From the sequence record MK327940.1: a stretch of DNA of 64,000 bases; one strand, given 5' to 3'. Below are positions 41,797 through 63,989 of this stretch, piece after piece. The notes beneath the pieces are model-generated. The model was not told the origin of the DNA and did not search any database. It worked only from the letters and a program-made list of their open reading frames with translations. Origin of the DNA: Escherichia phage vB_EcoM_G29. Every line of letters begins with the position of its first letter. The stretch's first letter is position 1. A program made the translations under genes and the position numbers.

Positions 41797-41826
41797 ATAG
41801 TACCATGGAAGGACAAGGATGTAAAC
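41797..41826 (-). promoter_or_regulatory. T4-type early promoter with A/T-rich upstream element
   Basis: Minus strand GTTTAC-18 nt-TACTAT; the flanking sequence recurs at 58484-58545 and 62136-62190. Confidence 0.6.
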
Positions 41827-58208: not shown

Positions 58209-58436
58209 TTACTTAATGTTCAGATTACGAACTTCGATTTCGTCTTCATGGGCAAAATCAAACTGTTTGAATTCTGTGTCACCTTTAAATTTAAAAATCA
58301 TTGTGAAGAAAGTCAGAACACCAGGTTTTTCTTCACGAACTCCACAGATATCATATTCAATACCATCTACAACCAGTTTGTTAGCAGTCAGAGCATTTTT
58401 AGCTTTAACAATTTCGTTTTCGATTTTAAATTTCAT
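58209..58436 (-). CDS. Hypothetical protein between gene 52 and motA
   Basis: 75-aa ORF with SD GGAGA, own early promoter upstream. Confidence 0.6.
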   Translation of the reverse strand: MKFKIENEIVKAKNALTANKLVVDGIEYDICGVREEKPGVLTFFTMIFKFKGDTEFKQFDFAHEDEIEVRNLNIK

Positions 58437-58485
58437 TTTTTGTATCTCCGGGTTGTTTGTTTCAGTTCATTTATTTGATAGTTGT

Positions 58486-58515
58486 ATAGTACCACAGTAT
58501 GCTTTGGTTGTAAAC
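58486..58515 (-). promoter_or_regulatory. T4-type early promoter
   Basis: Minus strand GTTTAC-18 nt-TACTAT plus A/T-rich upstream tract. Confidence 0.6.
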
Positions 58516-58534
58516 CGTTTTGTGAAAAAATTTT

Positions 58535-58566
58535 TGAAATAAAAAAGGGAGAGCCGAGGCTCTCCC
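58535..58566 (-). terminator. Terminator after the gene 52 operon
   Basis: GGGAGAGCC...GGCUCUCCC hairpin followed on the minus strand by uuuuuuauuuc. Confidence 0.65.
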
Positions 58567-58571
58567 TAAAA

Positions 58572-58721
58572 TTACTGCATGACTGTGATAACTGTCATGA
58601 TAACACGTTGAATTCCGAACGCAAGAAGACCTCCTGCTACGGCAGGAACAACACCTAAACCCGCCAGTAAAATGCCACCAGATACTAATGCAGCGCTTGT
58701 GATACCAATGAATGGACTCAT
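58572..58721 (-). CDS. Small glycine-zipper membrane protein downstream of gene 52
   Basis: 49-aa hydrophobic ORF translated by hand (MSPFIGITSAALVSGGILLAGLGVVPAVAGG...); ATGA-coupled to the gene 52 stop. Confidence 0.45.
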   Translation of the reverse strand: MSPFIGITSAALVSGGILLAGLGVVPAVAGGLLAFGIQRVIMTVITVMQ

Positions 58722-60046
58722 TTGATTTCCTCTAAATCTTTGGTGTATTCTGTAACTACATCAGTAGTTTTCCAATATTCGTTTTCTTCTTTTTTGGCTT
58801 TAGCTTCTTCAGCAAGTTTCTTTGCTTCGTCGGAAGTCATATGAAAAATGTTCATTCCAACTAGTTTATCAACATAAGAAGAATACATATCAATTTTAGA
58901 AAGTTCTTCGGTCAGTTCTTTGCGAGTTTTACCTTGTACAACAATTTCACCTGAAATTACTTTCTTAATGAAATGTGCCTTGGCAAAAGCTAAACGAAAT
59001 GCTGATTCAGTTTCTTTGATTTTGTTATCAATTCGTTTTTGGACATAAGTTTTACGAACTTCAACGAAGTCTTTGATTAAATCAACTACATTATCGTAAA
59101 CTTGCAGCTTTCCTTTCTCATTAATGACGGTAATATTCTGGGAACGACGCTCAATCAACCCGAAGTCTTTCATAATTTTTGCATGGCGTTCTTCTTCATT
59201 ATCGCTCAAAGAGTATTCTTTTCGGAATTTAACTTTGAAGCCAAAGCCATGCTCACCACAAGCATCATCCCATGTAATGAAGCCTTTATCTTCAAGCGGG
59301 TCTAAGATTTTACTCACATAAGTTTCACGATCATACTTATATGGAATCTCAGTGATATGCATTTGAGTTCGTGAAGTAAACTTATATGTTCCACGAATTT
59401 CATATTGCCCATCAATTTCAACGACTTCACCACGAAATTCTGGGAATTCTACCTTCGGTTTAGTTACTTTCTTTCCTTGAAGAGCTTGCAGTACAGCTTT
59501 CTTGACAGAAGAAACACTATGAGGAAGAATGTAAGTTGCATAACCAGTTGCAATACCGGAAACGCCATTAAGAAGAACAGTAGGAATAATAGGCAAATAG
59601 AAAGCAGGCGGAATGTGTTCTTTATCTTGATGTACTGGAGCATATTCAGTATCTTTATATACGTTATAGAAATTTTTACTTACACGAGCAAAAATATAAC
59701 GACTTGCTGCTGCCTTTTGGACAGTACGAGAACCAAAGTTTCCTTGACCGTCTAACAGAGGAAAGTTATTATTCCAAGTGTTAGCCATCAAAGCACCTGC
59801 GTCTTGCGCAGAGTTTTCACCATGATGATATCCAAGGTCCGCTACACCGCCTGCGATAGAAGCGAGTTTGTGAAACTTATCTTTATTTCCTCGTGCCAAA
59901 TCAAGAGCTCGAGCAATAACAAATCGTTGAACTGGCTTAAATCCGTCAATCATATTTGGAATGGCACGATTTTCAACCGTGTACATAGCATAAGCCAATG
60001 CTTCATTATCAATGATACTTTTTAAATCACGATTATTCAGTTGCAT
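58718..60046 (-). CDS. 52: DNA topoisomerase II medium subunit gp52
   Basis: 442-aa ORF, T4 gp52 length. Confidence 0.9.
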   Translation of the reverse strand: MQLNNRDLKSIIDNEALAYAMYTVENRAIPNMIDGFKPVQRFVIARALDLARGNKDKFHKLASIAGGVADLGYHHGENSAQDAGALMANTWNNNFPLLDGQGNFGSRTVQKAAASRYIFARVSKNFYNVYKDTEYAPVHQDKEHIPPAFYLPIIPTVLLNGVSGIATGYATYILPHSVSSVKKAVLQALQGKKVTKPKVEFPEFRGEVVEIDGQYEIRGTYKFTSRTQMHITEIPYKYDRETYVSKILDPLEDKGFITWDDACGEHGFGFKVKFRKEYSLSDNEEERHAKIMKDFGLIERRSQNITVINEKGKLQVYDNVVDLIKDFVEVRKTYVQKRIDNKIKETESAFRLAFAKAHFIKKVISGEIVVQGKTRKELTEELSKIDMYSSYVDKLVGMNIFHMTSDEAKKLAEEAKAKKEENEYWKTTDVVTEYTKDLEEIK

Positions 60047-60050
60047 AAAT

Positions 60051-60191
60051 TTACCATACTAGTGAATGTAGTGCCATAATAACATCAGAAATGAAAAGCA
60101 CGACTTGAATTAATCCGAACATTATTCCGTAATATAATGCTATCAATAAAATAGCAAGGGCTAATGAATAGCCCAAGATTTTCTTAATCAT
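60051..60191 (-). CDS. Small hydrophobic membrane protein (candidate ac)
   Basis: 46-aa ORF translated by hand (MIKKILGYSLALAILLIALYYG...), ending 4 nt before the gene 52 ATG. Confidence 0.4.
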   Translation of the reverse strand: MIKKILGYSLALAILLIALYYGIMFGLIQVVLFISDVIMALHSLVW

Positions 60192-60348
60192 TAGTAGATA
60201 ACAACACAAATGTTAAATATGCACACATACCCTGAGCTAAAGCTTGCGAAAACACACTGCTGGCATCAATCAGATAGTTAAAACACATGCTACTATCCAA
60301 CAAATAAATGAAATAACTCCTAATAATTTTGCGATATTCATATTTTCC

Positions 60349-60429
60349 TCACTGGCGTCCGAAGACGCCTTTAGTTTTAAGATTATTACGATAGAACTGC
60401 ATCACGTGTTCGTTGTGGAAATTACTCAT
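60349..60429 (-). CDS. stp: Stp peptide (activator of the host PrrC anticodon nuclease)
   Basis: 26-codon [29 protein letters not shown] translated by hand; start overlaps the ndd stop (TAATG). Confidence 0.7.
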
Positions 60430-60887
60430 TAATATGCCTGCAAAACGAATTTAAAATTATCAGCCAACATACGGTTCATTTCTTCAAGTGTTTGATACTC
60501 AGAATGATGATTACGAGTAAACGCTAAAGCTAACTGTCCTTTTCCAAATCCCGTCGTCAGAGGTTTCATCTTAGAAGCAGGCAGATAAAATACTGTGTAT
60601 ACCATATTGTTATTTGCAATAGTACGTGCAAGCTGAGACCGACGTTGACGAATATGACTTAGAACTGCACTGAATCCTTGCTTAGAACGCTGATTACCTA
60701 CATAAAATCGTGCAGACACACATGGATTACTAAATGGACGACCATCTAATTTACTTACTAAAAAATAAAATCCAGGTTTAGATAAAATATCTTTATGCGG
60801 AGTTCCCAAAAACCACTCACCACCCTTGATTGTACCAATAACAGTAGCGCCTGCATTATTCAGATCAGTAACAGTCATGTATTTCAT
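60429..60887 (-). CDS. ndd: Ndd nucleoid disruption protein
   Basis: 152 aa from [18 protein letters not shown]... with SD GAGGAAA; track ORF over-extended upstream. Confidence 0.75.
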
Positions 60888-60947
60888 ATTAATTTCCTCT
60901 AAATTATTTTCTACTCCAAGGCCGCATGAATACACGCGGCCATTAAA

Positions 60948-61163
60948 TTAATCGTCGCAGTCGACGCTCAATTCCCAAAACTCTTCTACAGTATAAGTTT
61001 CAGTATCATTTTCAATACAGAAACGTTCATTACTGTTATTTGCTAAAGTAGCATTAACTGTCGGTTTCTCGCTAGTGCTCTTAAGAGGTGAAATACGAAT
61101 TAACTGATCACCGTTATCTAAACAGAAAATTTCACCAACTTTTACATCTTTAAAACTTTTCAT
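60948..61163 (-). CDS. Hypothetical protein (ndd.1 position)
   Basis: 71-aa ORF. Confidence 0.55.
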   Translation of the reverse strand: MKSFKDVKVGEIFCLDNGDQLIRISPLKSTSEKPTVNATLANNSNERFCIENDTETYTVEEFWELSVDCDD

Positions 61164-61171
61164 AATTCACC

Positions 61172-61282
61172 TCAAGGAGTATAAAATCCAAACGCAGTTG
61201 TTGACCATCCCATCCAATATGGAAAATTTGCACCAATGTAAAACATAAGAATATAAAACCAACCGCTCAGCAAATTCATCAT
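61172..61282 (-). CDS. Tiny hydrophobic ORF
   Basis: 36-aa aromatic-rich ORF translated by hand (MMNLLSGWFYILMFYIG...); approximate. Confidence 0.3.
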   Translation of the reverse strand: MMNLLSGWFYILMFYIGANFPYWMGWSTTAFGFYTP

Positions 61283-61476
61283 TTTACACCATTCCAAATT
61301 GTTTCAACCACGGATTTTAAACCATTTTGATGAATATCAATTCCGACTACTGTCATCAAATAGATTCCAACTACAACTGAACCTAAGGCAAAAATCAGCA
61401 TGAAAATGAATAAAGCCGGAAAAATATTATCGAAAAACCATTCAATAAATGTAAAAGCACTGCGTTTACGCTTCAT
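61279..61476 (-). CDS. Small membrane protein
   Basis: 65 aa from MKRKRSAFTFIEWFF... with SD GAGGAAAA; one TM helix. Confidence 0.5.
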   Translation of the reverse strand: MKRKRSAFTFIEWFFDNIFPALFIFMLIFALGSVVVGIYLMTVVGIDIHQNGLKSVVETIWNGVK

Positions 61477-61483
61477 ATTTTCC

Positions 61484-61597
61484 TCACATAAATCCAAAGT
61501 AAGCGTTTAATACATCAATCATTAAAACGATTGGGAATATACTCAAAACTACTAGTATTATAACTACATTCCATATAGCTTTAACAATCTTTTTCAT
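61484..61597 (-). CDS. Small membrane protein
   Basis: 37 aa from MKKIVKAIWNVVIILVVLSIFPIVLM... with SD GGAGG; the track ORF start lies upstream of its own promoter. Confidence 0.45.
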   Translation of the reverse strand: MKKIVKAIWNVVIILVVLSIFPIVLMIDVLNAYFGFM

Positions 61598-61624
61598 TTT
61601 CTGTTCCTCCGTAGTTGATAGGTA

Positions 61625-61654
61625 ATAGTACCACGGAAGAACAGTCTTGTAAAC
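61625..61654 (-). promoter_or_regulatory. T4-type early promoter
   Basis: Minus strand GTTTAC-18 nt-TACTAT. Confidence 0.55.
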
Positions 61655-61839
61655 AACTTTTTTAAAAATATTCGTAATAAATGTGAATACCAACTACTAC
61701 CGCTGAAACCTGTGCAACCCACCACGCACAAGCAATAAGTACAGAATTCAAAATTTTCATAATAACCTCATTACAAAAGTAAATGTTAAACAAATTAATG
61801 GAATACTAATTAACCAAACAAAACACCACCATAATGAAC

Positions 61840-62103
61840 TCATAGTTCAATCTCAGCGATTTTCATTTCATTATTGTTAATAGCATTTTTAAGACTATCC
61901 GAAAGAATTACATTCCAGTGGTCATTCATATGACCATTAACTAAGCGTGTAATTTCTTCGGGAGTTGAAAAATAAGGCGTATCAGACTCCCAATGCGATA
62001 ATCCTAAGCGAGTATAAATCATGCCTTCATCATCGCTAGAATATTCAACTGACACAAACTCATCAGTTATTTTATGTTTAGCGTAATAAAATTTAAATTT
62101 CAT
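61840..62103 (-). CDS. Hypothetical protein (ndd.x position)
   Basis: 87 aa from MKFKFYYAKHK... with SD GGAG; early promoter at 62138-62167. Confidence 0.5.
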   Translation of the reverse strand: MKFKFYYAKHKITDEFVSVEYSSDDEGMIYTRLGLSHWESDTPYFSTPEEITRLVNGHMNDHWNVILSDSLKNAINNNEMKIAEIEL

Positions 62104-62137
62104 TTTACTCTCCAAATCCGTATCAGTTGATAGTTGT

Positions 62138-62167
62138 ATAGTACCACGGTCCTTGTGGTATGTAAAC
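62138..62167 (-). promoter_or_regulatory. T4-type early promoter
   Basis: Minus strand GTTTAC-18 nt-TACTAT with shared upstream A/T tract. Confidence 0.55.
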
Positions 62168-62183
62168 CATTTTGTGAAATTTT

Positions 62184-62741
62184 TTAAATGGAAAGATACC
62201 ATCCGCTGTAGTTGCTTTTTCTTACAACCTTACGAAGGTCTTCTCTATCACCGATGAACTTCGGAGTGTATTGGATGACACCTGGATGAATTTCTTTAGT
62301 GTTGAATATAATTATACAGTCAGCGACTTGATGATTTAGAATGGGCCCTAGATTTATTCCAGAACCATATGGATACTCTCCGCTGCATCCTGTTGTCACC
62401 GAAATCCAACGTGAGTCAGTTTGATGTGTCTTAACTTCTACACGAAGCCCGCAGTATCTTGGATGCGCCAATACATCCCATGCATATGTGTACGGATCAT
62501 CGACATCTTCTTGACCTTTGTTAACATACCCGCTCAGCCAATCTGCTACAAAAAACTCTGCGTACACAGCGATACGGCATCTTTCGATAACTTCTGCCTT
62601 ATCCTGATTTGGGTTTTGTTTTAAAGAGTATCTTGCAGTATCAACAATTTTGACCTTCATTTCACTAGTCAAGTCACTGTTCGATAGGGTAAATGTCGGA
62701 ATCTGAAATAGTCTCTGTAACCCCGGATTCGTTTTCTGCAT
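62184..62741 (-). CDS. denB: Endonuclease IV (DenB) candidate
   Basis: 185-aa ORF at the position and length of T4 denB between the ndd block and rIIB; assigned by synteny only. Confidence 0.55.
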   Translation of the reverse strand: MQKTNPGLQRLFQIPTFTLSNSDLTSEMKVKIVDTARYSLKQNPNQDKAEVIERCRIAVYAEFFVADWLSGYVNKGQEDVDDPYTYAWDVLAHPRYCGLRVEVKTHQTDSRWISVTTGCSGEYPYGSGINLGPILNHQVADCIIIFNTKEIHPGVIQYTPKFIGDREDLRKVVRKSNYSGWYLSI

Positions 62742-62827
62742 TTAAACTTTCCTTTTATGTCTGAATCACTGGTATTCATATAATAAATCATAATTTCTCT
62801 TAAAACAAAAGGGCCGAAGCCCTTATT

Positions 62828-63022
62828 TTATTTGAATTGTGCAATTCTTTTCTCTAGACATTCAGCATAAGATTTCATTGAGATAAACTGCGAAAGTAAC
62901 AGTTCTTGCTCAACTGCATTAACTGTTAGAAACTTTGCGCTTTCTAAAAATTTGCTCAGTGCATTAATTTTGAGCATTAATTGATCGTATTCTTCTTTTA
63001 CTCGTGCTTGATAACCTAACAT
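62828..63022 (-). CDS. Hypothetical protein (denB.1 position)
   Basis: 64-aa ORF with SD GAGGA, preceded by a UUCG hairpin. Confidence 0.55.
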   Translation of the reverse strand: MLGYQARVKEEYDQLMLKINALSKFLESAKFLTVNAVEQELLLSQFISMKSYAECLEKRIAQFK

Positions 63023-63050
63023 AATTTTCCTCAGTTAAGGGCCGAAGCCC

Positions 63051-63989
63051 TTATTTAAATTGTTCAGTAACGTCTTCAACTACTTCGTATTGGCAGGTAC
63101 GCATTTTAGCATCGTTGTAATCAATCGGAATTGATACTACATCACGCGGATGTACTTTAACTTTTACAACTCGGCTAGTTGAACTGCCAAAGTGACGAAT
63201 ATAAGATTTAGAACACACATGCAGACCGCGAGAACAAGTTTGTGTATCATCGTCATTCACACGAGTACGTGGCATTTTAACTACTTTACCAGGGCTGTTA
63301 TCAAAAGTATTTGAATGACAGTCAAAGTAATTACTGCGAACTACTTTCCAAGCATAGAAGTAACCGTCTTCTGTAATTTCAATATCGTTTGCTACCAAGA
63401 AATCAAAGAGTCGAGATACCGCTTTTTGGCTTGGGTTTTCCAACAGATTTTCCAAGAACGGAAAATAGAATTCAAAGTTTTCGCCTTTTTCCATCGAGTC
63501 AAGAATACGATCAACCAAACCAGATCGCAATTCAATATTTTGATAGAACAAGCTTCCACCTTCAATTCGAACATCGCCGGAAATATATTTTTCAACAGCG
63601 CGACGAACATTAATTTTTTGTGCCGCTTCTTCCAACTTATCCGCTACAAGCAGATTAAGAATTTCCTGGAAGTTTGAATGAGTATTAGGAGTTGCGTTAT
63701 AAGTTACACCGTCAACAGTAATTGAAATGAATTTTTTAGATGCATTCCAAATAATGTCAGATTTAGCAACTGGAGCAATAACTGCATCGCTATTAACTTT
63801 AACTGTAATATCACCGCTAATAGTAACTTTAGAGCGTTTAGCTTCTTCAGCATTTTTCAAAACACGACGAATTGTGTCAACCGATACACCTTGCCAATCA
63901 GCCAATTCCTGTTGGGTGTAATTACCACTTGAATACAATTTAACAATTTCAGCTTGTTCGTTTTTGGTCAGGCATTTAATATTGTACAT
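63051..63989 (-). CDS. rIIB: RIIB rapid-lysis protein
   Basis: 312-aa ORF (T4 rIIB length); ATG at 63987-63989 with SD AAGGAAA. Confidence 0.85.
   Translation of the reverse strand: MYNIKCLTKNEQAEIVKLYSSGNYTQQELADWQGVSVDTIRRVLKNAEEAKRSKVTISGDITVKVNSDAVIAPVAKSDIIWNASKKFISITVDGVTYNATPNTHSNFQEILNLLVADKLEEAAQKINVRRAVEKYISGDVRIEGGSLFYQNIELRSGLVDRILDSMEKGENFEFYFPFLENLLENPSQKAVSRLFDFLVANDIEITEDGYFYAWKVVRSNYFDCHSNTFDNSPGKVVKMPRTRVNDDDTQTCSRGLHVCSKSYIRHFGSSTSRVVKVKVHPRDVVSIPIDYNDAKMRTCQYEVVEDVTEQFK

Follow-up and report, generated by a model that had tools for sequence, protein, structure and literature searches.

Seven small genes between ndd and denB

The window analysed here comprises 64,000 nucleotides of the Escherichia phage vB_EcoM_G29 (MK327940.1). 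On its minus strand, seven densely packed ORFs occupy positions 60948–62103, the interval between ndd (nucleoid disruption protein, 60429..60887, minus strand) at the downstream flank and denB (endonuclease IV, 62184..62741, minus strand) at the upstream flank. A sequence-only reading of this DNA had claimed at least five small ORFs of 28–87 aa between these two genes, and seven are indeed present where it placed them. The locus is 100% identical at the nucleotide level to those of G4500 and G9062, and its position from ndd to denB, its strand and its gene order all match the annotated genomes of G9062, RB14 and T4. Judged by this comparison, it is the ndd–denB accessory segment of a T4-type Tequatrovirus phage, and the ORFs are identifiable as the T4 genes ndd.1, ndd.2, ndd.2a, ndd.4, ndd.5 and ndd.6 together with an 87-aa gene missing from T4, here called orf87. 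The T4 set ndd.1–ndd.6 (NC_000866 T4p269–T4p275; PHROGs 2183, 4135, 2401, 3098, 5011 and 8851) shows the same position, strand and order, and the analysed locus differs from it in carrying the additional 87-aa gene.

Five of the seven products (28–65 aa) are hydrophobic, and two (71 and 87 aa) are soluble. The earlier claim that most of them contain a single TM helix agrees with the five hydrophobic products but does not extend to those of ndd.1 and orf87. The best 19-residue Kyte-Doolittle mean lies between 2.2 and 3.1 in four ORFs. Good Shine-Dalgarno sequences (GAGG/GGAGG, 5–7 nt upstream), which had been noted for several of the ORFs, precede ndd.1, ndd.2a, ndd.4, ndd.5 and orf87. The Shine-Dalgarno sequences of ndd.2 and ndd.6 are weak, and the start codons of both lie inside an ATGA stop/start overlap with the preceding gene. 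Translation is predicted to proceed either from the own Shine-Dalgarno sequence of each gene or by ATGA stop/start coupling.

The first gene of the cluster in the direction of transcription, orf87 (61840–62103, minus strand; PHROG 2390), encodes a hydrophilic, soluble protein with a predicted alpha/beta fold. It is of the RB14ncORF269c/RB69ORF270c type, found in RB14 and RB69-type phages and missing from T4 and T2, where its deletion leaves an 8-codon mini-ORF that retains the coupling to ndd.6. Within Tequatrovirus, orf87 falls into two allele classes of 95–100% and 52–55% amino acid identity. The 87-aa start is located downstream of the first early promoter and has a GGAGAG Shine-Dalgarno sequence; the upstream start of a 120-aa version lies upstream of that promoter. 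An AF2 model based on 5 sequences was unusable (pLDDT 49), while a 9-sequence alignment yielded a pLDDT of 89. Fold searches with this model found no solved relative, and the matches consisted of uncharacterised phage proteins alone.

The next gene, ndd.6 (61757–61843, minus strand; PHROG 8851), encodes a 28-aa single-helix peptide; an ATGA joins its start to the stop of orf87, its pN/pS is 0.13, and its W..W..IP.IC motif is kept in Mosigvirus and Dhakavirus. The start of ndd.5 (61662–61760, minus strand; PHROG 5011) overlaps the ndd.6 stop in turn. This gene has its own GAGG Shine-Dalgarno sequence, a pN/pS of 0.09 and a 32-aa hydrophobic product restricted to Tequatrovirus. Residues L8-I9-A10-C11 of Ndd.5 resemble a lipobox ([LVI][ASTVI][GAS]C), and Cys11 is invariant in 18 Tequatrovirus loci; however, a signal peptide in front of it would have no more than 10 residues, and the gene has no distant homologs in which conservation of the cysteine could be followed. 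Preceded by a strong GGAGGA Shine-Dalgarno sequence, ndd.4 (61484–61597, minus strand; PHROG 3098) encodes a 37-aa predicted single-pass membrane peptide and contains the sequence MKKIVKAIWN... quoted in the earlier reading. Nineteen of its residues are invariant in Tequatrovirus, Dhakavirus and Gaprivervirus (K.AIWN...VLSIFPIV.MID). T4 has an upstream ATG for ndd.4; the analysed phage has ACG at this place, which leaves the 37-aa start alone.

At the downstream end, ndd.2 (61172–61282, minus strand; PHROG 4135) has a start that overlaps the ndd.2a stop and encodes 36 aa that are rich in aromatic and devoid of charged residues. It occurs in Tequatrovirus only and has a pN/pS of 0.14. With a best 19-residue mean of 1.17, Ndd.2 is moderately hydrophobic and may not span the bilayer. 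The last gene, ndd.1 (60948–61163, minus strand; PHROG 2183), encodes an acidic, hydrophilic, soluble protein of 71 aa, which is conserved in four T-even genera (pN/pS 0.08); a PDB sequence search with Ndd.1 returned nothing meaningful.

Two further hydrophobic micro-ORFs had been pointed out beside gene 52, and these are motA.1 (58572–58721, minus strand; 49 aa, Gly/Ala-rich, PHROG 3487) and 52.1 (60051–60191, minus strand; 46 aa, PHROG 3595). The 52.1 product matches Pfam DUF7396 (PF24129) over its full length (residues 1–46; 78.3 bits, cutoff 27) and is 63–89% conserved in three other genera. No credible RNA family was found by Rfam in 58400–63100, the top match, to SorY, reaching 20 bits where the gathering score is 111. 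In the same part of the genome, the ac gene carries a frameshift (deletion) that the analysed phage shares only with G4500; a 2026 intercalator preprint, followed up for a link to acriflavine, contains no discussion of the ac gene.

Ndd.2a, DUF7248 and the annotation of the cluster

Between ndd.2 and ndd.4 lies ndd.2a (61279–61476, minus strand; PHROG 2401; pN/pS 0.07), which contains the other sequence quoted earlier, MKRKRSAFTF.... In its 65-aa product, a single TM helix separates a basic N-terminus from the conserved C-terminal tail NGLKSVVETIWNG. Residues 6–63 match Pfam DUF7248 (PF23906) with 68.1 bits (cutoff 27, E 6.5e-19), and the protein has the layout of the family, in which a short N-terminal segment precedes a single TM helix and a GLKSVV..IWNG tail. 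About 21 DUF7248 cluster representatives combine one such helix with a conserved tail at the C-terminus, the tail motif being [EQ].GLK[SG][VI][VI][ED].[IV]W[NE]G. Counted over 22 members, the N-terminal flank contains 60 K+R and 16 D+E, the C-terminal flank 72 and 107, respectively. This charge distribution predicts a cytoplasmic N-terminus for Ndd.2a and places its amphipathic tail of ~20 residues in the periplasm. A PDB sequence search with DUF7248 gave nothing meaningful. Large tape-measure-like proteins were hit by the DUF7248 profile and rejected as members: only the 16-residue tail matches, by way of ETVWNGIK repeats, a resemblance between amphipathic helices that we ascribe to convergence and not to homology. 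Compared with the existing Pfam families DUF7248 and DUF7396, Ndd.2a and 52.1 are no different in kind; the predicted topology and the tail motif are additions.

The analysed phage carries ndd.2a as an intact 65-aa gene, which the T4 reference splits into the two fragments “ndd.3” and “ndd.2a”. Disruption of ndd.2a in two phage records, one being the T4 reference and the other that of a T2 escape mutant, indicates that full-length Ndd.2a is dispensable for growth in laboratory hosts. The T4 “ndd.3” is a reference-sequence artefact that goes back to a codon-3 deletion in AF158101, which may be either an error of sequencing or a mutation of the T4D stock; the genuine ndd.2a comprises 65 aa, and the name “ndd.3” should be retired.

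The labels “outer membrane” and “periplasmic”, which the T4 and RefSeq annotations attach to ndd.2, ndd.2a, ndd.5 and ndd.6, are not credible for proteins lacking a signal peptide plus mature domain. We reject them because products of 28–36 aa are almost wholly one hydrophobic stretch with no mature domain left, and an outer-membrane barrel needs a much longer chain. The basic N-terminus, TM helix and 20-aa tail of Ndd.2a point to a membrane-anchored and not a soluble periplasmic protein.

As to the suggestion that such genes are under-annotated, the RefSeq record of G9062 does lack ndd.6 and stp, and ndd.4, ndd.5 and ndd.6 are missing from that of SHFML-26. On the other hand, ndd.1–ndd.6, motA.1 and 52.1 have carried these names in T4 for decades, and a PHROG family exists for every one of them. 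The ORFs are genuine, conserved and, in T4, transcribed early, and they are non-essential genes that were annotated long ago. The finding re-identifies genes that have been named, assigned to families and covered by genome-wide knock-down and omics. Its yield is curatorial and consists of the 65-aa ndd.2a with the retirement of “ndd.3”, the rejected localisation names, the absence of ndd.6 and stp from some RefSeq records, and the predicted topology and tail motif of DUF7248.

Early transcription and reality of the reading frames

Early promoters had been proposed at 61625–61654 and 62138–62167, and we identified an exact T4-type motif at both sites. P1 (62138..62167, minus strand) is a T4-type early (sigma-70) promoter with the sequence GTTTACA-N17-TGGTACTAT and an A/T-rich upstream element; P2 (61625..61654, minus strand) is of the same type and again reads GTTTACA-N17-TGGTACTAT. 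Four copies of this motif were found in the 64-kb window, where 0 are expected. The P1 cassette together with a ACAACTATCAAC leader is also present in T4, T2 and RB14, and promoter and leader recur at other sites of the window. Host RNA polymerase can presumably read both sigma-70 early promoters, which would give two compact units, orf87 > ndd.6 > ndd.5 from P1 and ndd.4 > ndd.2a > ndd.2 > ndd.1 > ndd from P2. The early promoters of the T4 ndd.1–ndd.6 set are the same as those of the analysed locus, and in T4 itself, from which the expression data come, RNA-seq assigned the ndd.1 to ndd.6 RNAs to the early class (PMC9697503 Table S2).

Two reports on T4-type genomes describe hyperplastic regions, in which variable accessory genes are grouped between blocks that are conserved, and the gain and loss of genes next to repeated early-promoter (PeSL) cassettes (PMC2839356, PMC4122927). 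The analysed locus resembles these regions in that its indels are located directly downstream of P1. It differs from PeSL-type exchange in the junction of the orf87 deletion, which is a short ATGAAA repeat within the gene and not a promoter cassette.

The sequence-only reading had also staked its case on conservation of the reading frames in related phages, and the frames are kept. Relatives were drawn from an annotated phage collection, and an Ndd-anchored scan of viral contigs gave 5 loci. All ORFs are full-length in 18/18 Tequatrovirus loci, tblastn against T4 and RB14 gave 92–100% identity over the full length, and every ORF belongs to a PHROG family (E-values 1e-17 to 1e-38). For 6/7 ORFs, pN/pS in the annotated frame is 0.07–0.14 versus about 1–16 in unrelated frames; the flanking genes ndd and denB show 0.09 and 0.04, respectively. 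The remaining ORF, ndd.4, has a pN/pS of 0.39 within Tequatrovirus, a value that gives no signal of frame-specific selection and is uninformative. Cross-genus homologs of unchanged length, order and motifs exist for ndd.1, ndd.2a, ndd.4, ndd.6 and orf87; motif conservation spans four genera, and the gene content of the ndd–denB region differs among genera. Based on these comparisons, we infer that the reading frames are under purifying selection. Five ORFs, four of them with a Kyte-Doolittle value of at least 2.0, fill 88% of one strand over 686 nt, and the antisense strand of these 686 nt holds one ORF with 16% coverage. Such tiling is not a product of chance: 0/1000 dinucleotide shuffles reached either the ORF coverage or the hydrophobic count.

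Protein data are sparser. Ndd.1 is the sole cluster member detected as a protein in T4, and none of the T4 ndd.2–ndd.6 products was detected in the same proteome study (Class_P = NA; PMC9697503). Membrane microproteins systematically escape proteomics. Ndd.2a went undetected despite a normal tryptic peptide, SVVETIWNGVK, so that its abundance may be low or its translation weak. That the ORFs are chance frames without functional translation in an A/T-rich spacer between promoters, as the missing ndd.2 to ndd.6 peptides, a knock-down without fitness effect and the ambiguous pN/pS of ndd.4 might suggest, is extremely improbable and effectively refuted by frame-specific purifying selection in 6/7 ORFs, by cross-genus homologs that hold length and motifs (ndd.4 included) and by the shuffle test, to which Shine-Dalgarno sequences, kept translational coupling and DUF7248 relatives in distant T4-like phages can be added.

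Possible roles of the membrane microproteins

The ndd.x genes are dispensable in laboratory hosts: in CRISPRi-ART, ndd.1 to ndd.6 were all scored “Not Fit” (PMC11879866), and the deletion sa-delta-9, which extends from 52.1 through denB and removes 52.1, ac, stp, ndd, ndd.1–ndd.6 and denB, still gives 50% of the wild-type phage yield (PMC6071114). What the many small, non-essential immediate-early genes of T4 do is an old question. Based on the predicted features described above, the hydrophobic ndd.x products are probably single-pass inner-membrane microproteins that serve as conditional accessory factors by binding host envelope targets. The five hydrophobic products would enter the inner membrane of the host in the initial minutes of infection and would bind envelope proteins of the host (or of a prophage) as single-helix microproteins, not act as enzymes. 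They would be conditional in being dispensable in laboratory E. coli, and Ndd.2a would probably use its periplasmic tail to contact a target that is conserved in enterobacterial hosts. AcrZ, MgtS, TisB and Hok are single-helix proteins of 20–65 aa that bind larger membrane proteins or perturb the bilayer; the analogy to these is one of mechanism only, without homology. A bolder version, which we put forward tentatively and consider rather doubtful, is that Ndd.2a and the other DUF7248 proteins are widespread early phage effectors that show a GLKSVV..IWNG periplasmic peptide to an envelope target of Enterobacterales, with blocking of competing phage DNA entry or retuning of lipid or cell-wall synthesis as candidate roles, and that Ndd.4 and Ndd.6 are further ligands acting through their invariant intramembrane Pro motifs.

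Alternatively, the microproteins could guard the infected cell against membrane-level threats, either by superinfection exclusion, with DNA entry of a second phage being blocked, or by counteracting the abortive-infection or exclusion systems with which prophages and plasmids act at the membrane. This is possible, though we would not call it probable. The neighbours stp, ndd, denB, ac and rII are host-takeover and counter-defence genes, and rII opposes the membrane-depolarising RexAB (PMC11879866). The ndd.x genes are early and variable across genera, laboratory strains poor in defence systems do not make them essential, and the Ndd.2a tail is predicted to reside in the periplasm, the path of incoming DNA. 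Imm (about 83 aa) and Sp (about 97 aa) are small membrane proteins of T4, early and non-essential, whose site of action is the envelope. The ndd.x products are of the same early, non-essential membrane type but smaller, without sequence or family similarity to Imm or Sp, and we know of no exclusion phenotype reported for them. Searches of Pfam, PHROGs and NCBIfam matched none of the seven products to an exclusion or anti-defence family. The sole PADLOC match, of Ndd.4 to KwaA, is weak (E 0.0085, 13.8 bits), aligns one TM helix to another over 28 residues, and is rejected as a compositional artefact of hydrophobic helices. Moreover, ndd.2a, ndd.4 and ndd.6 are kept across genera with different hosts, which fits a conserved host target better than defence systems of sporadic occurrence. 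For superinfection exclusion, transporter inhibition and anti-defence, the functions suggested from the letters alone, we found no sequence, family or literature evidence linking them to ndd.x.

In another reading, at least one membrane peptide is the T4 determinant that stimulates host phosphatidylglycerol (PG) synthesis after infection, for example via an inner-membrane enzyme or regulator of phospholipid synthesis. In sa-delta-9, the post-infection stimulation of phospholipid synthesis is virtually gone, and according to the authors several products of the deleted region are predicted membrane proteins (PMC6071114). However, PG stimulation is also lost in a mutant whose sole deficiencies are in dCTPase, endonuclease IV (denB) and Alc, as well as in the partly overlapping deletion rII-delta-DD2 (PMC6071114). 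The effect may therefore map to denB or cytosine-DNA metabolism and not to ndd.x, and we regard this assignment as unlikely.

Quite unlikely, too, is a function as small membrane toxins of the type I toxin or holin kind that contribute to host shut-off by depolarising or permeabilising the inner membrane. The peptides are similar to such toxins in size and hydrophobicity, and according to Kutter et al. a number of small T4 immediate-early genes have host-lethal products, which hampered cloning (PMC6071114). Against this, none of the seven products matched a holin or type I toxin family in Pfam, PHROGs or NCBIfam, and the conserved motifs SIFPIV.MID, IP.IC and GLKSVV..IWNG suggest specific contacts over generic damage. 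In addition, T4 requires an energised membrane early in infection. A Mosigvirus screen found only 6/45 early proteins to be growth-inhibitory (bioRxiv 10.64898/2026.09.14.751387).

The preferred reading, specific binding of a host envelope protein, has a parallel in Emp (Gp94) of Mosigvirus AV110, a small early T-even protein that targets MreB/C/D (bioRxiv 10.64898/2026.09.14.751387). Emp is not one of the ORFs described here: it has 109 aa and a predicted alpha/beta fold and adjoins motA, in contrast to the ndd.x genes between ndd and denB. If any of the ndd.x peptides had a defined host target, it would represent a new phage-host interface and, as with Emp, a possible antibacterial lead. Another protein of AV110, Gp263, was mildly inhibitory (bioRxiv 10.64898/2026.09.14.751387).

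Gene content between ndd and denB

The segment at 60948-62103, between ndd (60429..60887) and denB (62184..62741), is 100% identical in vB_EcoM_G4500 and G9062, both Tequatrovirus phages; 490 phage records contain 80% of it or more. Its ORFs are, gene for gene, ndd.1, ndd.2, ndd.2a (with "ndd.3"), ndd.4, ndd.5 and ndd.6 of T4, which lie between ndd and denB. Small hydrophobic ORFs had been noticed here in a sequence-only reading, and they lie where it placed them, all on the minus strand. By Kyte-Doolittle analysis, five of the seven products are hydrophobic: Ndd.2 (61172-61282; 36 aa, aromatic-rich and charge-free), Ndd.2a (61279-61476; 65 aa), Ndd.4 (61484-61597; 37 aa), Ndd.5 (61662-61760; 32 aa) and Ndd.6 (61757-61843; 28 aa). 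Those of ndd.1 (60948-61163; 71 aa) and orf87 (61840-62103; 87 aa) are hydrophilic. The highest 19-residue mean is 2.2-3.1 in four hydrophobic products and 1.17 in Ndd.2. Within a 686-nt stretch, five ORFs take up 88% of one strand; none of 1000 dinucleotide-preserving shuffles matched this coverage or the number of hydrophobic ORFs, and the tiling is not due to chance.

Every product has an existing PHROG family, and Ndd.2a corresponds to Pfam DUF7248. The two micro-ORFs placed beside gene 52 (58572..58721 and 60051..60191) are motA.1 and 52.1 (Pfam DUF7396). The cluster is an ordinary feature that has been catalogued before; the earlier observation is confirmed, its interpretation supported in part.

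In T4, "ndd.3" is split off from ndd.2a because the 65-aa ndd.2a gene lacks one G at codon 3; "ndd.3" is an out-of-frame reading (NC_000866 5549-5629; window 61468-61476) and a PHROG singleton. This deletion is confined to X75802, AF158101 and NC_000866; it was found neither in five independently sequenced T4 genomes (HM137666, KJ477684, KJ477685, OZ209023, OZ209057) nor in ∼488 other records. T4 and RefSeq records carry the labels "outer membrane protein" and "periplasmic protein", neither of which is credible for peptides that number 28-36 residues and consist of a single hydrophobic stretch. Residues 8-11 of Ndd.5 (LIAC) fit a lipobox, which may be the origin of the former label; Cys11 is invariant in 18 loci, and the would-be signal peptide has just 10 residues. 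Annotation of stp and ndd.6 is missing from the G9062 RefSeq record (NC_054920) and that of ndd.4, ndd.5 and ndd.6 from SHFML-26, and some records call the products "naphthalene 1,2-dioxygenase".

Compared with G9062, T4 and RB14, the nearby ac (acridine resistance) gene (∼60184-60341, minus strand) has a 1-nt deletion near 60270-60271, so that Ac is truncated past residue 23 (MNIAKLLGVISFICWIVACVLTI*). Of 456 phage records that contain this stretch, G4500 (MK327945.1) is the only one with the same deletion, which reflects either a natural ac-minus genotype or an error in sequencing that record.

Promoters, translation signals and orf87

Two early promoters had been predicted, and both are located exactly at 62138-62167 (P1) and 61625-61654 (P2). 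Each reads GTTTACA-N17-TGGTACTAT and has an A/T-rich element upstream, and both share a ACAACTATCAAC leader; the motif has four matches in the window vs none expected. P1 (62167-62138) lies in the 80-nt gap following denB and would drive orf87, ndd.6 and ndd.5, which are joined through two ATGA overlaps. P2 (61654-61625) occupies the 64-nt gap following ndd.5 and would drive ndd.4, ndd.2a, ndd.2 (by ATGA overlap) and ndd.1, followed by ndd. The good Shine-Dalgarno sequences claimed for several of these ORFs are present in five of the seven genes (GAGG/GGAGG, 5-7 nt upstream of the start), whereas the starts of ndd.2 and ndd.6 each overlap the preceding gene's stop codon as ATGA. A third exact motif (58486-58515) is found just upstream of a 75-aa ORF (58209-58436, minus strand) between motA and motA.1, which is absent at that position in T4 and annotated in G9062 as KMC12_gp153. 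The fourth, GTTTAC-N16-TGGTACTAT (41797-41826, minus strand), lies away from the cluster.

Downstream of P1 (window 61840-62137; T4, L003, 5985-6095; T2, L018, 1633-1960; locus L002, 3530-4090), four states occur: orf87 alone (the window), a 68-aa gene plus orf87 (RB14, UFV-AREG1), neither (T4) or the 68-aa gene only (T2). T4 and T2, from which orf87 is absent, share an in-frame deletion of its codons 3-80 between two ATGAAA repeats. The remnant is an 8-codon mini-ORF (MKIAEIEL*) with a stop still overlapping the ndd.6 start, suggesting that ndd.6 may depend on translational coupling. Of the two orf87 starts, the one giving 87 aa is credible, since it lies downstream of P1, follows a GGAGAG Shine-Dalgarno sequence and gives an N-terminus matching other genera; the 120-aa form in some records starts upstream of P1. 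In RB14, orf87 is annotated as RB14ncORF269c, "similar to RB69ORF270c". Otherwise close Tequatrovirus (L013-L017) carry two orf87 allele classes, one 95-100% and the other 52-55% identical to the window gene in amino acid sequence. At 68%, the Mosigvirus version resembles the window gene more than the second class does, which suggests that alleles have been exchanged across genera. A 115-aa orf87::Ndd.6 read-through fusion was seen on a metagenomic contig (P0012), a public-run assembly that may be in error.

Coding constraint and conserved motifs

Reading frames, which the sequence-only reading had proposed to check in relatives, proved to be conserved, and the ORFs were not refuted. All seven are full length in 18 Tequatrovirus loci. 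For six of them, pN/pS pooled over pairs is 0.07-0.14 in the annotated frame (flanking genes: ndd 0.09, denB 0.04) and ∼1-16 in frames without a common wobble position; the value of 0.39 for ndd.4 is uninformative at Tequatrovirus divergence. Dhakavirus and Gaprivervirus have Ndd.4 homologs of equal length in which 19 residues are invariant (K.AIWN...VLSIFPIV.MID), and W..W..IP.IC of Ndd.6 is kept at the same operon position in Mosigvirus and Dhakavirus. Gaprivervirus VR26 encodes Ndd.2a in one 68-aa ORF, where the tail NGLKSVV..IWNG is invariant. Ndd.1 and orf87 were found in all four genera examined, ndd.2 and ndd.5 in Tequatrovirus only. Chance ORFs are effectively excluded as an explanation.

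Ndd.4 comprises MKKIVK-, a helix and a 7-residue tail, and Ndd.4, Ndd.5 and Ndd.6 are scarcely more than one helix. Used as a profile query against 1.8 billion cluster representatives, Ndd.2a gave 27 matches; ∼21 are 47-76 aa long and combine a single hydrophobic helix with the tail motif [EQ].GLK[SG][VI][VI][ED].[IV]W[NE]G, and those with names come from T4-like phages of Serratia and Kosakonia. In 22 family members, N-flanks hold 60 K/R vs 16 D/E and C-flanks 72 vs 107. Based on this asymmetry and the positive-inside rule of membrane topology, the N-terminus is predicted to be cytoplasmic and the conserved tail periplasmic. Tail hydrophobic residues (L, VV, IW, V), read from the sequence, follow the i, i+3/4 spacing of an amphipathic helix. 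Tape-measure-like proteins of 820-976 aa (P0024, P0028, P0032, P0037; E 1e-6 to 2.5e-4) with 5-10 tandem ETVWNGIK-type repeats also match the DUF7248 profile over its final 16 residues, probably a convergent amphipathic-helix similarity. Shigella phage Sf25 gp120 (P0007) is a 62-aa chimera of the Ndd.4 helix and the Ndd.2a tail, and in the T2 "escape mutant" PV648364.1 (1143-1277) a premature stop (GGA->TGA, codon 45) removes the conserved Ndd.2a tail. The Ndd.4 helix weakly matches the Kiwa defence membrane protein KwaA (PADLOC; E 0.0085, 13.8 bits, 28 residues), most likely for compositional reasons.

Published phenotypes and possible roles

In T4, the RNAs of ndd.1 to ndd.6 all belong to the early class, and at the protein level Ndd.1 alone was detected, ndd.2 to ndd.6 being listed as NA (PMC9697503 Table S2). 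In genome-wide CRISPRi-ART, the score was "Not Fit" for each of ndd.1, ndd.2, ndd.2a, ndd.3, ndd.4, ndd.5 and ndd.6 (PMC11879866). The sa-delta-9 deletion, which lacks 52.1, ac, stp, ndd, ndd.1-ndd.6 and denB, still gives 50% of the wild-type phage yield; its authors term the ndd.1-ndd.6 products unknown (PMC6071114). The cluster ORFs are genuine genes: selection acts on them, early promoters drive them, and the phage can do without them in laboratory hosts.

We propose that the five hydrophobic products would become embedded in the inner membrane a few minutes into infection and may bind envelope proteins there, acting as conditional accessory factors. A role in exclusion or counter-defence, as first suggested for these microproteins, is possible but rather doubtful. 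It is improbable that one or more ndd.x peptides determine phosphatidylglycerol stimulation: post-infection stimulation of phospholipid synthesis is abolished in sa-delta-9, but the phosphatidylglycerol effect is also lost in a mutant in which only dCTPase, endonuclease IV and Alc are missing (PMC6071114), which weakens this assignment. Membrane toxins are likewise improbable, as the motif-level conservation inside and beside the helices favours contacts of a specific kind over general damage to the membrane.
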